Positions 47,242 to 52,308 of a stretch of 64,000 nucleotides of DNA are shown in pieces. Below the pieces are notes generated by a model. It saw only the letters and a program-made list of their open reading frames with translations, was not told where the DNA came from and did no database searches. The DNA comes from Candidatus Thorarchaeota archaeon (GTDB taxonomy: Archaea > Asgardarchaeota > Thorarchaeia > Thorarchaeales > Thorarchaeaceae): positions 64,001-128,000 of the forward strand of contig JBHLRZ010000002.1 of the NCBI GenBank assembly GCA_048882045.1, read 5' to 3'. Numbering within the stretch: position 1 is the first letter of the stretch; every line of letters starts with the position of its first letter. The position numbers and the translations under genes were made by a program.

Positions 47242-47607
47242 ATGGGAATAGCAGGAAGAATTTTTGGACTAGCATTGGCTGCCAGTGGATTCTTTATTCT
47301 ATGGTTTGGAATGGGTTCTCCCGCAGATCCTCTCTCCTATGTCTACTCGTTTATCGGAATGATTGTCATGGCCATGGGATTTGCCTTTTTGACTTCAGGA
47401 AGCAAGAAAGACGAGAAGAAACCTCCACCACCGACTGTGACCGAGATCAGATGTAATAGCTGTGACTTCAAGGAGATTCGTGATTTTCAAAAGGGGGACT
47501 ATGTTCTAAAACCAGTTGAAACCACATGTCCGAAATGTCAGAGTCCTATGACAATTGAAGGCGTGTACATCGTACGAGAAGAGCCGGACGAAAAAGACAG
47601 AATCTAG
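47242..47607 (+). CDS. Membrane protein with a C-terminal zinc ribbon (DUF1512-associated)
   Basis: Two TM helices; CNSC...RDFQKGDYV...CPKC. Confidence 0.75.
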   Translation: MGIAGRIFGLALAASGFFILWFGMGSPADPLSYVYSFIGMIVMAMGFAFLTSGSKKDEKKPPPPTVTEIRCNSCDFKEIRDFQKGDYVLKPVETTCPKCQSPMTIEGVYIVREEPDEKDRI

Positions 47608-48503
47608 TCTGATTTGGTAAGAATGATAGGACCGTCCTCTGAGATATAGACTGTGTGTTCGGTCTGACTTACAGGGCGGTTTTTCTTCTCTATCTGAATT
47701 GGATATCCACGAATCACTTGTTCTTTAAGCAATTTTTTGATCTCTTCTACTACATCGATGTCTTTGCTTCCTGTACCAATCCAGCGTAATGCAAAGGGAT
47801 AGGGTCCATATTTCTCACGAAGATATTTTCTTAGTTTCTCAGTGGTACCTTCGAGTTGTTTGTCCAATCCAGTATTTGCAAATATGTAGACATACTCACT
47901 ATCAATCACTGTTCCTGTACCACTAGTTGCAAAGGGTTCGACTGCATAGTACTCTCCCACTTCGATGGTATCTTTGGTTTTCTTTCTAACATTCGGAACG
48001 ATTTTCCCAGCATGAAGTCGATCCCTCCTCAGTTCATGTCCAGATAGGTTTTTGATAGGTCTGAGACCGTATTCCTTAATCACCTGTTCAATTCTTTTAC
48101 CCACATCACCAAGATTGGTTTCTGGCCGCATTATTTCAATGGCTTCTGTTAGGGCGTCTTCCGTGGATGCTACAAAACCCTCAAGTGTTTCGTCAATATC
48201 AACCGTGGAGGCTGTATCTGCGATGTATCCATCTACGACAACTCCCACATCCAGCTTCACCAGTCCAAACTCCGGAATCTCACTTTTGTCACCGCGCGGA
48301 GATGTACTATGAGCAGCAATATGATTGATTGAAACATTGAGAGGAAAAGCTGGTTGTCCTCCATACTTCTTTATCTTACTCTCCGCAAGTGCACAGATCT
48401 TAATGATTCTCTTTCCAGGCTCAATTTCTTCACGTATCTCACTCAGTACTCGTGCTGCTATCTTTCCTGATTTAATGGCTGAAGGATTTGGCTGGTCAGA
48501 CAC
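47604..48503 (-). CDS. map: Methionine aminopeptidase type II, paralogue 2
   Basis: AFPLN, AAH, D/D/H/E/E metal ligands (KLDVG, ADTA, SGHE, VEPF, TEHT). Confidence 0.93.
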   Translation of the reverse strand: MSDQPNPSAIKSGKIAARVLSEIREEIEPGKRIIKICALAESKIKKYGGQPAFPLNVSINHIAAHSTSPRGDKSEIPEFGLVKLDVGVVVDGYIADTASTVDIDETLEGFVASTEDALTEAIEIMRPETNLGDVGKRIEQVIKEYGLRPIKNLSGHELRRDRLHAGKIVPNVRKKTKDTIEVGEYYAVEPFATSGTGTVIDSEYVYIFANTGLDKQLEGTTEKLRKYLREKYGPYPFALRWIGTGSKDIDVVEEIKKLLKEQVIRGYPIQIEKKNRPVSQTEHTVYISEDGPIILTKSD

Positions 48504-48556: not shown

Positions 48557-49474
48557 CTAAGAGAGTTCATCGTCACGTCTGGTGGACACAATCGCTCCAT
48601 TCTCTCCAACAAATATACTATGTTCGAATTGGGATACGATACCATTCTTTCCTTCGTATAGAACAGAGTATCCATGAATTGCTCCAGCCCGCTGAAGACT
48701 TTGGATTGCAGAGTCAACATCGATTTCACCACTCTTCGAGTGAATCCATCTTGATGCCCAAGGAAGACTTCCAAACTTACTTCGTGCGATATTTCTTACA
48801 CGAAGAGTATGATCATCAAGCTTCTTGTTGTTCCTCAGGTCGTTGGAGAAGATGTATGCTCTTGGTCCACTCCTAATCGTTCCATTCCCATTTGTAGCAA
48901 AGGGTTCAATCGCAAAGGTCTCTCCAAGACGCATCTTTCCAGTCAGTTTCATTCCGATGTTTGGCACGTTCTTTCCTGCATGGAGAGTCCAGGGTTTTAG
49001 TTGGTGTCCTGTGAGCTGATGGACAGGTTTCAGACCGTATCCCTTGATTGTTCGCTCAATCTCTCTTCCCACATCTCCCAGTGAGATATCTGGAACTATC
49101 ACATCAATTGCAGCATCCAAGGCATCTCTGGCGGCCCCGATGTAGTTCTCATAAGAACCATCAAGGTCTACGGTGATTGCTGTATCTGAAATATGACCAT
49201 TCACATGAGCACCAATGTCAATCTTTACAAGACCCTTGTCAGGGAATACTTTGGAATCATTATGGGGGCTTGTGTAATGTGCCGCTTCATTATCAATAGA
49301 GATGTTTGTAGGGAACGCAATCCCTGTTGCACCAAACTCGAGTATCTTCTTTTCTGTGAGCTTGCAGATTTTCAGCACTTTTACTCCAGATTTAACCTCG
49401 TCCTCAATATAGCTCAATACTTGAGCAGCAATATTGCCTGCCCTCATGAAGTCTGGATGAGGCTTTGTTTCCAT
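48557..49474 (-). CDS. map: Methionine aminopeptidase type II, paralogue 1
   Basis: AFPTN, AAHYT, DIGAHVNG, SDTA, TGHQ, IEPF, FEHS. Confidence 0.95.
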   Translation of the reverse strand: METKPHPDFMRAGNIAAQVLSYIEDEVKSGVKVLKICKLTEKKILEFGATGIAFPTNISIDNEAAHYTSPHNDSKVFPDKGLVKIDIGAHVNGHISDTAITVDLDGSYENYIGAARDALDAAIDVIVPDISLGDVGREIERTIKGYGLKPVHQLTGHQLKPWTLHAGKNVPNIGMKLTGKMRLGETFAIEPFATNGNGTIRSGPRAYIFSNDLRNNKKLDDHTLRVRNIARSKFGSLPWASRWIHSKSGEIDVDSAIQSLQRAGAIHGYSVLYEGKNGIVSQFEHSIFVGENGAIVSTRRDDELS

Positions 49475-49590: not shown

Positions 49591-50262
49591 ATGAAGGTCA
49601 CTTACTTAGGACATGCATCTTTCAAGATTGAAGAGGATGGAATAATCGTCTACGTGGACCCCTGGCTTCAGGGTCCTACTTCACCAATCACAATAGACGA
49701 TGTTGACAAAGCCGACATTGTATTGGTCACTCACGATCACGCTGACCATGGGTTTGTGGAAGGACGGGATATATGCAAGAAAACTGGAGCTATCTTCGTA
49801 GCCATGAATGAACTTGCAATCAAGGCCGGAGATCAAGGTGTAAAGAACATCCACACACTCAACATTGGTGGAAGTGTAGATATTGGAGGAGTGGTTGTGA
49901 CCCTCGTCCAAGCATTTCACTCATCGGGAGTAGGAGCACCCACAGGATTCATTGTGCGGTTTCCAAGTGGTTCATTCTATCATCCAGGAGATACTGGAGT
50001 CTTTGCCTCTATGAGTTTGTTCGCAGAATTATACTCTCCCCTCGACTTGTTTTTTGCTCCCATAGGATCATTTTACACCATGGATGCACATCAAGCAGCA
50101 CTTGCAGTAAAGTTGCTAAAACCTAGCAACGTCATCCCCATGCATTACAATACATTTCCTGTAATAGAAACGAATCCAGAGAAGTTCAAGGCCCTTGTAT
50201 CAGAAACAAGTCCACAAACAAACGTGATGATCATCAAACCTGGAGAATCAACAGAGATCTAG
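49591..50262 (+). CDS. UPF0173 metallo-beta-lactamase-fold hydrolase
   Basis: LGHAS, VDPW, THDHADH, HPGDT, PMHYNTF. Confidence 0.93.
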   Translation: MKVTYLGHASFKIEEDGIIVYVDPWLQGPTSPITIDDVDKADIVLVTHDHADHGFVEGRDICKKTGAIFVAMNELAIKAGDQGVKNIHTLNIGGSVDIGGVVVTLVQAFHSSGVGAPTGFIVRFPSGSFYHPGDTGVFASMSLFAELYSPLDLFFAPIGSFYTMDAHQAALAVKLLKPSNVIPMHYNTFPVIETNPEKFKALVSETSPQTNVMIIKPGESTEI

Positions 50263-50264
50263 AA

Positions 50265-50556
50265 GAAATGGTGGTTGGTGCCTGTCACCCTGCACACTAA
50301 CTCCCAGCATCACAGCATCAGAGATTACCTCTGGCTCCACTGAGCTGTCTCGTGTCGGGATTTCTGGCACCAACCGGCCCGCCAATGTACGAAACCGGGG
50401 TGACCCGCTCTTCATCTAAAGGACAAACATCCCTATCAAGCGAGTCCGTTATGGCTCATCCTATTGGTGTTTGGCAGGCAAACATTCAGGATGTGACCCG
50501 CCCTATGCGCAACACATCATTGGAAAGACCTCAGTGCGCCCTCGTGAACGGGACAA
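50265..50556 (-). ncRNA. Candidate ~290-nt structured RNA of unknown class (kink-turn hairpins plus ACCA-ended 3' domain)
   Basis: Five adjacent stems with G-U pairs on the minus strand only; CTGA/ATGATG motif; 10-bp terminal stem plus ACCA then TTTCTTCT. Confidence 0.6.
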
Positions 50557-50599
50557 ATTGTTCCTGAACAAGAGAATCTGAATTTCTATTGTTATTAGG

Positions 50600-51030
50600 A
50601 TTACCACTTGGCGCGAATCCGCATCTTTCAAGTGGTTCTTTAGTACATCAGAGGACAGACTATATGGTGATAGCGACATCTTCAAATACACTCGGGAAAC
50701 AGCCCCAATGTACAGCATGGAGGGTATAACCCATTCATGCTCTGCAAATCATCATATAATCACATCACAGCGCCACGTGGACCCCGGCTATGGACCAAAA
50801 GAATAGTCGGTGAAACACTGCGCAAAGTCTTAGGACGATTATCATTCACAGGATCATCATCACGATTATCATAGCATATGTTCGGGCATGGGTTAGAGTA
50901 GTATCAAATGAGGATTTATTCCAATCACAGTCAAGAGGCATAGGCCAGTCCGTGACAAGACGCAGAAGGACATCACCTCGGTCTATACACGAGGGTACGT
51001 GGTAGCATGAAATAGGAGACGTGTATAGAA
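50600..51030 (+). promoter_or_regulatory. Long structured leader of dnaG
   Basis: Several hairpins with G-U pairs on the plus strand; 50982-50991 is complementary to 51020-51029. Confidence 0.5.
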
Positions 51031-52308
51031 ATAGGAACAGACTTCGACCAGAGTACAGCCAAATACGTCATTCGTGCGAGAATAGAAATAGATGGCGTGG
51101 TTGACAAGCCTGATGTAGTAGGCGCAGTATTTGGTCAGACTGAAGGTTTACTCGGTGAAGACCTAGATTTACGAGAACTTCAGCGGACCGGTCGTATAGG
51201 AAGAATTCAGATTGCCATCAGATCAGCAAAGGGCAAGAGCACTGGTGAGATTGTGATACCCGTTTCACTCAACAAGACAGCCACTGCAATACTAGCCGCG
51301 GCACTCGAAACTGTTGACAGAGTTGGTCCTTGCACAGCGAAAGTAATTCTCGAAAAACTTGAGGACATTCGTGGTGCAAAGAGAAGGAAAGTCGTTAGCC
51401 GAGCAATTAGCATATTGAAAGGATGGGAAGAAGACATTTCCCCAGGTGCTGACGAGATAAAGACTGCTGTAACAAAAGGAAGCAAGGTTCCTGTGTCCAA
51501 GTTCGGACCAGACAACCTGCCTGCTGGCCCTGACCTTGAAAAGAGTAAGGAAATCATCATTGTCGAAGGTAGAGCTGACATCATCAACCTAATGAAGTGT
51601 GGAATCACAAACACGGTTGCTGTTGAGGGAACCCACATTCCAAAGAGCGTTGCAGACCTCACAAAGAAGAGAGGCAAGACGGTGACAGCCTTTCTCGATG
51701 GCGATAGAGGTGGCGACCTGATACTAAGGGAACTCATGCAAGTAGCGAAAGTTGATTATATCGCTAGAGCCCCTGAAGGAAAAGAAGTTGAGGACCTCAC
51801 AAGGCGAGAGGTCATAAAAGCACTTCAGACTCATATTCCCGCTGATCAAGCACTTGCACTAGTCAAGGAAAGAAAGACGACCCCTGCAAAACAAAAGAAA
51901 CCTGCAAAGAAACCTACTCGCACCACTCGGACTCAAAGAGAACCGAGAAGAAGGGACGAAAGGCCTGAACGCCGAGCACCTTCCAGCAGAAGACCTGCAC
52001 GCAGTGAACCAATACATGTTGACGAAGCCTACAGTGCAAAAATTGGAGACATCAAAGAGGCATTCAAAGCCATTCTGTTTGATGAGAACAAAAAAGTTCT
52101 TGTGGAATGTGGAGTCGCTGAACTTGCAAAGACCCTCGAAGCGCAAGAAACAGTTCCGGCAATAGTCTTTGATGGAGTTATAACACAACGTCTTGTAGAC
52201 ATTGCTAGTAAGAAAAACACCGAGTTCTTGATTGGAGCTGCTGTGGCTGACATCGAAAACAAACCCGCCAGCATGAAGATTGTAACATTTGACGATATAG
52301 GTCAATAA
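51025..52308 (+). CDS. dnaG: Archaeal DnaG (TOPRIM; exosome-associated RNA-binding subunit), probable ATA start (51025 or 51031)
   Basis: TAKYVIRARIEIDGVVDKPDVVGAVFGQTEGLLG, VEGRAD, DGDRGG; conserved N-terminus extends upstream of GTG 51097. Confidence 0.95.
   Translation: MEIGTDFDQSTAKYVIRARIEIDGVVDKPDVVGAVFGQTEGLLGEDLDLRELQRTGRIGRIQIAIRSAKGKSTGEIVIPVSLNKTATAILAAALETVDRVGPCTAKVILEKLEDIRGAKRRKVVSRAISILKGWEEDISPGADEIKTAVTKGSKVPVSKFGPDNLPAGPDLEKSKEIIIVEGRADIINLMKCGITNTVAVEGTHIPKSVADLTKKRGKTVTAFLDGDRGGDLILRELMQVAKVDYIARAPEGKEVEDLTRREVIKALQTHIPADQALALVKERKTTPAKQKKPAKKPTRTTRTQREPRRRDERPERRAPSSRRPARSEPIHVDEAYSAKIGDIKEAFKAILFDENKKVLVECGVAELAKTLEAQETVPAIVFDGVITQRLVDIASKKNTEFLIGAAVADIENKPASMKIVTFDDIGQ

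Follow-up and report, generated by a model that had tools for sequence, protein, structure and literature searches.

What is encoded between a metallo-beta-lactamase-fold hydrolase gene (49591-50262) and dnaG, both on the plus strand, in the 64,000-nucleotide stretch of Thorarchaeota DNA that we analyzed (hereafter, the window)? The preliminary description of this locus left two options: an L7Ae-bound, multi-hairpin guide RNA of the H/ACA type, or a new class of RNA with a 3' end mimicking tRNA. Here we argue for the first. With a probability that we put at roughly 0.9, the locus encodes a three-motif box H/ACA guide sRNA that is the Asgard ortholog of Pab40, Pf7 and Afu4 (HgcG) and of sR-h45. 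The evidence at hand consists of the sequence, its conservation, covariation, boxes, complementarity and the genes of partner proteins; from it we infer transcription, protein binding, catalysis, the exact uridines and a role for the helices that enclose the units, which we call clamps.

The RNA gene and its position

The RNA gene occupies positions 50570-50266 of the minus strand (~300 nt), both ends being presumed, and its extent follows BLAST and the order of the units in distant Asgard genomes. No long open reading frame covers it on either strand, two 71-codon frames overlapping parts of it, and a paralog search with models of units 3 and 1 found it to be single-copy. The transcript presumably starts ~14 nt further 5' than had been proposed, since the first enclosing helix has its 5' strand at 50570-50562, which had been missed. 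BLAST detected the stretch in 33/36 genomes of the family, at 67-91% identity, and it is therefore a conserved element. The model of unit 3 retrieved homologs from 49 of 150 Asgard genomes, including 26/26 of the other family members, so that many Asgard families are represented, and in most of the distant Asgard loci examined units 1 and 2 lie upstream of unit 3 in unchanged order.

A GC-rich BRE-like box (50617-50610) and a TATA-like box (50599-50591) upstream of the gene are conserved in the family alignment and together form a putative promoter (50591-50617, minus strand). The spacing from this promoter-like box to the first helix is constant, even in genomes that lack unit 1, and the box is similar to the one upstream of tRNA-Arg(tcg) on C22. 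The opposite end of the gene carries a 3' tail (50262-50272, minus strand) in which an ACCA (50272-50269), which is not conserved, is followed by a pyrimidine run that may act as a terminator; most family members have a pyrimidine-rich tail after the last helix.

The RNA gene is situated between the hydrolase gene and dnaG in most family members, as would be expected of a cis-acting structure, that is, a terminator or leader of one of these neighbours. We give this explanation almost no credence, because the RNA is encoded on the other strand from both genes, behind a promoter-like box of its own, because neither gene was found within the fetched flanks of many distant Asgard loci, and because its invariant bases pair with rRNA.

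Three H/ACA units

The minus strand folds better than shuffled sequences (z -2.14; 3/100 shuffles), and the plus strand does not (z -0.97). The fold that covaries consists of three successive H/ACA units, each with a lower stem, a pocket, a K-turn stem and an ACA box. In units 1, 2 and 3, respectively, 96.4%, 93.9% and 96.8% of the alignment cells are paired, values that 0/500 shuffles reach in any of the three, and sliding the fold as a control lowered pairing to 28-45%. Two-sided changes occur at 12, 14 and 13 pairs, counts that are inflated by kinship, although two hairpins of the preliminary description that were scored on largely the same genomes (hairpins 2 and 4, see below) stayed at shuffle level.

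The three units are arranged as follows, all on the minus strand. Unit 1 (50483-50570) has its clamp helix at 50570-50562 with 50491-50483, its lower stem at 50552-50546 with 50503-50497, its pocket strands at 50545-50540 and 50508-50504, its K-turn at 50534-50531 with 50521-50515, and its ACA box at 50494-50492. Unit 2 (50377-50479), which includes a small side hairpin, has its clamp at 50479-50471 with 50385-50377, its lower stem at 50459-50453 with 50396-50389, its pocket strands at 50452-50446 and 50402-50397, its K-turn at 50439-50436 with 50416-50411, and its ACA box at 50388-50386. Unit 3 (50273-50375) has its clamp at 50375-50366 with 50282-50273, its lower stem at 50359-50352 with 50295-50288, its pocket strands at 50351-50345 and 50302-50296, its K-turn at 50339-50336 with 50314-50308, and its ACA box at 50285-50283. 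A D-arm-like tetraloop hairpin considered inside unit 3 was dropped, as a G-to-A change in several members breaks the hairpin and spares the long-range pairing (judged by eye).

In all three units the pocket strands are invariant alignment columns, and the tandem G-A pairs of the K-turn are invariant or nearly so. The K-turn lies 9 nt (unit 1), 10-11 nt (unit 2) and 9 nt (unit 3) from the pocket, and the ACA or AUA box lies 14, 14 (13 if U2585 is the target of unit 2) and 16 nt from the pocket top, respectively; for archaeal box H/ACA sRNAs, 9-10 nt and 14-16 nt are expected of these two distances. Across Asgard genomes this box spacing is 14 nt in 15/16 copies of unit 2, and 14-17 nt in 19 copies of unit 3.

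These results bear out a good part of the preliminary description and redraw the rest. All the motifs that it listed are present in the sequence; covariation supports its first hairpin, with K-turn and ACA, and its third, with a K-turn, which is the upper stem of unit 2. The helix closing its 107-nt branched domain, which is unit 3, also covaries, with two-sided changes at 7/10 pairs. The ACA boxes of units 2 and 3 and the third K-turn were absent from it. Its hairpins 2 and 4, in contrast to the three-unit fold, fail against the homologs: jointly they are 74.8% paired (77.6% and 55.2% for the two helices of hairpin 2, 90.8% for hairpin 4), and 182/500 shuffles do as well. The strands of both are used instead by the outer helices and by the lower stem of unit 2, an arrangement kept across homologs. 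The 9-mer that it found repeated 93 nt apart is there, but it occurs twice in only 5/29 members, and its copies sit at different structural positions. It saw no SRP or RNase P signature, and Rfam gave no match to SRP RNA or RNase P RNA at E values up to 10.

The 3' end is where the proposal of a new class with a tRNA mimic, on which RNase P, the CCA-adding enzyme or a synthetase would act, has to be weighed. On the one hand, the succession of helix, ACCA and pyrimidine run resembles the 3' ends of the organism's own tRNA genes, most of which encode the CCA end followed by pyrimidines, and CC is found at tail positions 2-3 in 17/32 related members. On the other hand, the ACCA, although present here, follows the last helix in only 9/32 members and is not kept in the distant Asgard copies, so that it cannot be called conserved. 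Moreover, the 10-bp helix leads into an internal loop that carries an ACA box, and both a T arm and an anticodon arm are missing. Helices of the same kind also close units 1 and 2, which are internal and have no free 3' end, and ARAGORN called no tRNA at the feature. The domain is instead the third H/ACA unit, and we regard a tRNA mimic as highly improbable. mascRNA and the tmRNA acceptor arm are tRNA-like 3' modules. Like these, the RNA has, in this one genome, a terminal helix with ACCA behind it; unlike them it has no T arm, its ACCA is not conserved, and an ACA box and a guide pocket lie inside. As a separate observation, many of the organism's own tRNA genes (genome G000) were called only with introns at unusual positions, and several such calls look misassigned.

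Predicted targets in 23S rRNA

The 16S and 23S rRNAs of the organism itself are unassembled in its genome, and targets were searched in 20 23S and 15 16S sequences from the family. A strict scan, allowing two unpaired target bases, found the target of unit 1 and no conserved site for units 2 and 3. The sites of the latter two were found after relaxing the scan to five unpaired bases, and both rest on this relaxed rule. In E. coli numbering we take the predicted sites to be U2496, U2585/2586 and U1915/1917, and the spacings that we measured, 90 and 581 nt, agree with these numbers.

Unit 1 is complementary to UGC and CCUCG, which flank a U at position 2624 of the 23S rRNA of G017; this is its best match in 20/20 family 23S sequences. 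Its geometry is canonical, with UN unpaired, 3+5 bp (4+5 where members have GCAA) and a distance of 14 nt to the ACA box, and U2496 is its predicted site; taken alone, the match is weak against chance, since 26/200 shuffles reach it. Unit 3 pairs over 6+5 bp around the helix-69 loop, with five target bases unpaired. This is its best match in 20/20 family 23S sequences, one that 1/200 shuffled rRNAs equals, and in this atypical geometry the predicted site is U1915, perhaps together with U1917. For comparison, four unpaired target bases are functional in sR-h45 (PMC7075261), one fewer than units 2 and 3 leave here.

The prediction for unit 2, U2586 or U2585, is the weakest of the three. In 17/20 family 23S sequences it pairs over 4+6 bp at helix 93, 90 nt from the target of unit 1, again with five target bases unpaired. 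Could unit 2 have been re-targeted or be inactive in the family, leaving only units 1 and 3 to guide modification? In the 3' pocket strand, the first A of other Asgard copies, which pairs with U2585, is missing from the family, a near-canonical site at G017 position 2818 scores higher in one genome, and motif 2 of Pab40 is known to have changed its target through a single substitution (PMC2377435). Yet the pocket strands of unit 2 are invariant, its 5' pocket strand tracks the sequence of helix 93, including the change in G031 described below, and the site at 2818, intact in just 2/20 23S sequences, was rejected as its main target. We therefore see loss or change of the helix-93 target as a possibility, though not the one that we favour. 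As to the exact uridines, the choice for unit 2, and whether unit 3 would modify both loop uridines, are the least certain points of the prediction.

Changes on the guide side accompany some of those on the rRNA side. At the 1920 position of helix 69, an rRNA G meets a guide C in 13 family genomes, and an rRNA C meets a guide G in 7 genomes outside the family, which may reflect a single lineage event. In helix 93, G031, alone among the family members paired, reads CCGUC rather than CCGUU, and its guide has G for A there. Guide-target compensation is incomplete, however, because rRNA position 1910 differs between lineages while the guide is unchanged.

Most likely, then, the three units would be made as one transcript from their own promoter. 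L7Ae would bind the K-turn of each unit, while the ACA box and lower stem would be bound by Cbf5 together with Nop10 and Gar1. By pairing with 23S rRNA the pocket strands would flank a uridine, and the uridine so presented would be isomerised to pseudouridine by Cbf5. These roles of L7Ae and Cbf5, and the isomerisation, are assigned because they are the established H/ACA mechanism, which is itself textbook knowledge. The genome encodes Cbf5 (TIGR00425, 427 bits), as well as Nop10, L7Ae and Gar1 (Pfam Nop10p, Ribosomal_L7Ae and Gar1, all above cut-off). The RNA is thus a candidate guide, listed neither in Rfam nor in the papers searched, for Asgard pseudouridines at three places of the large rRNA that are central to its function; among these, the helix-69 sites are modified in every domain of life. 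With this guide, rRNA modification in Asgard archaea can be predicted and put to the test, and the Pab40/sR-h45 lineage would extend to relatives of eukaryotes.

Kinship with HgcG and sR-h45, and the clamp helices

An Rfam scan of this region of the window gave chance-level matches only, and a search of the organism's own genome with the HgcG model RF00064 gave no match, this copy included. Six of the 18 distant Asgard loci, in contrast, match RF00064 over the full model at E < 0.01 (best 4.7e-8), although the best homolog scores 40.7 bits against a gathering cut-off of 77 and all homologs fall below that cut-off. The proposal that the RNA is novel, which was to fall with a strong match to a known family, is thus partly contradicted, by the distant homologs but not by the RNA's own copy. 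It also follows that the link to HgcG runs via the homologs and the shared targets. A pattern search of the genome contigs with the HgcG consensus returned one chance bacterial match only, and our literature searches found no Asgard H/ACA guides.

HgcG (RF00064), which comprises Pab40, Pf7, Pho40 and Afu4, likewise has three K-turn hairpins with an ACA after each (PMC2377435, PMC4652768). Motif 1 of Pab40 modifies Pyrococcus 23S position 2588 and motif 3 the helix-69 site 2016, and the equivalent of 2678 is the predicted target of motif 2 of Pf7 and Afu4 (PMC2377435). The order of targets is therefore identical to the one predicted here: positions 2588 and 2678 of Pyrococcus are 90 nt apart, as are the targets of units 1 and 2, and the third is the helix-69 loop. 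The Asgard homologs agree with the HgcG consensus in the pocket strands of motifs 1 and 3. There are differences as well. In the HgcG consensus the motifs stand head to tail with no enclosing helices, each ACA leading almost directly into the next motif, whereas here an outer helix surrounds every unit; this copy is too diverged to match the model, and the pairing of its unit 3 is atypical, with five unpaired target bases.

sR-h45 of Haloferax volcanii has two stem-loops homologous to motifs 2 and 3, and its targets are the last two of the three (PMC7075261, PMC2584109); the Haloferax hairpins are homologous to stems II and III of Pf7 (PMC2584109). Its 3' stem-loop modifies both helix-69 uridines with UAUG unpaired, the geometry predicted for unit 3. 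sR-h45 differs in having a 56-base spacer between its hairpins and no motif 1, and clamps are not described for it; members of our family without unit 1 have the same two-unit content. U19 and snR191 of eukaryotes are two-hairpin hinge-and-tail snoRNAs without K-turns. They guide the same two helix-69 pseudouridines (PMC2584109), a likeness of target. We conclude that the RNA is an Asgard relative of the Pab40/sR-h45 H/ACA guides that has diverged from them and carries clamps in addition, and not a new class.

The clamps are covarying outer helices of 9-10 bp, one around each unit, whose 3' strand starts right after the ACA box, with 1-3 nt between adjacent clamps. They are also seen without an alignment: in 18 distant copies and our own, the clamp of unit 3 has a mean energy of -12.6 kcal/mol vs -5.1 when strands are swapped, and ranks first in 11/19. 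Outside the family the clamp of unit 2 is weaker by the same measure (-10.6 vs -6.0 swapped; first in 6/16). The clamp of unit 1 is a plain helix in the family and a C/D-type K-turn in 13 distant Asgard copies (among L099-L117). A box C/D methylation guide or C/D-H/ACA hybrid, which would have C and D boxes and single-stranded antisense elements ahead of D, was rejected: clamp 1 is a plain helix in the family, and in the other Asgard copies D is preceded by no more than the ACA box and a short strand of a helix. Our literature search, whose coverage was incomplete, found no description of such clamps.

Since every unit has its own closing helix, the clamps might be processing stems and the RNA a polycistronic precursor, the units being cut apart or circularised into separate small RNAs. 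In keeping with this, unit 1 is cleanly missing from several genomes (L021 and L023-L027), where its clamp is left as a bare hairpin behind the promoter-like box, and Pab21 is known in two processed forms (PMC2377435). Nevertheless, we consider separate small RNAs unlikely: only 1-3 nt separate the clamps, no bulge-helix-bulge was seen in them when the family alignments were inspected by eye, and each of Pab40 and sR-h45 has been described as one RNA with several hairpins. A single three-unit guide is the reading that we retain, and its outer helices probably fix the fold of each unit and protect its ends. A more far-reaching idea, which we find rather improbable, is that the clamps amount to an H/ACA architecture shared across Asgard archaea and have a function in their own right, their closing stems directing end formation through excision, circularisation or trimming by tRNA-processing enzymes. 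The ACA box would then be located where helices join, rather than in a free hinge or tail, with unit 1 capped in most other lineages by the second, C/D-type K-turn. If true, the clamps would represent an unrecognised maturation route of guide RNAs in the closest relatives of eukaryotes. In any case, the enclosing helices pose a small structural question, namely how Cbf5 would read an ACA box directly abutted by a helix.

The make-up of the RNA varies in some other Asgard genomes. G043 (L097:1330-1500) has no unit 1 beside units 2 and 3, a base change in its 23S rRNA adjoins the unit 1 target, and the upper stem of its unit 3 matches Rfam Pyrobac-1 (E 0.0036). In genus g10 (L032:920-1000 and L086; genomes G036 and G074) a long unrelated hairpin replaces unit 1, L089 (G070) is also without unit 1, and in L095 (G037) unit 1 adjoins unit 3, with no match to unit 2.

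Around the RNA gene, a second conserved non-coding block lies just upstream (window 50663-50890) and was recovered in 31 family loci. Repeats resembling UGAUGA occur several times on its minus strand, along with two hairpins whose sequence varies and a 14-mer, at about 50674-50689, that is near-invariant. Rfam gave a chance-level match only (ACEA_U3, E 1.4), no antisense element to rRNA was convincing, and the consensus fold was limited to one helix; an 8-nt plus-strand stretch near 50849 is complementary to the 5' end of 16S rRNA and is not kept in all members. The block is possibly another small RNA or a leader of dnaG. The dnaG frame appears to begin upstream of the listed GTG at 51097 (window 51029-51096), and a purine-rich site, conserved at about 51012-51040, leads into in-frame dnaG sequence that contains no ATG, which suggests that the start codon of dnaG is non-standard. 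On the other side of the hydrolase gene, two methionine-aminopeptidase-like genes lie in tandem on the minus strand (window 47604-48503 and 48557-49474), one of them confirmed as Peptidase_M24.
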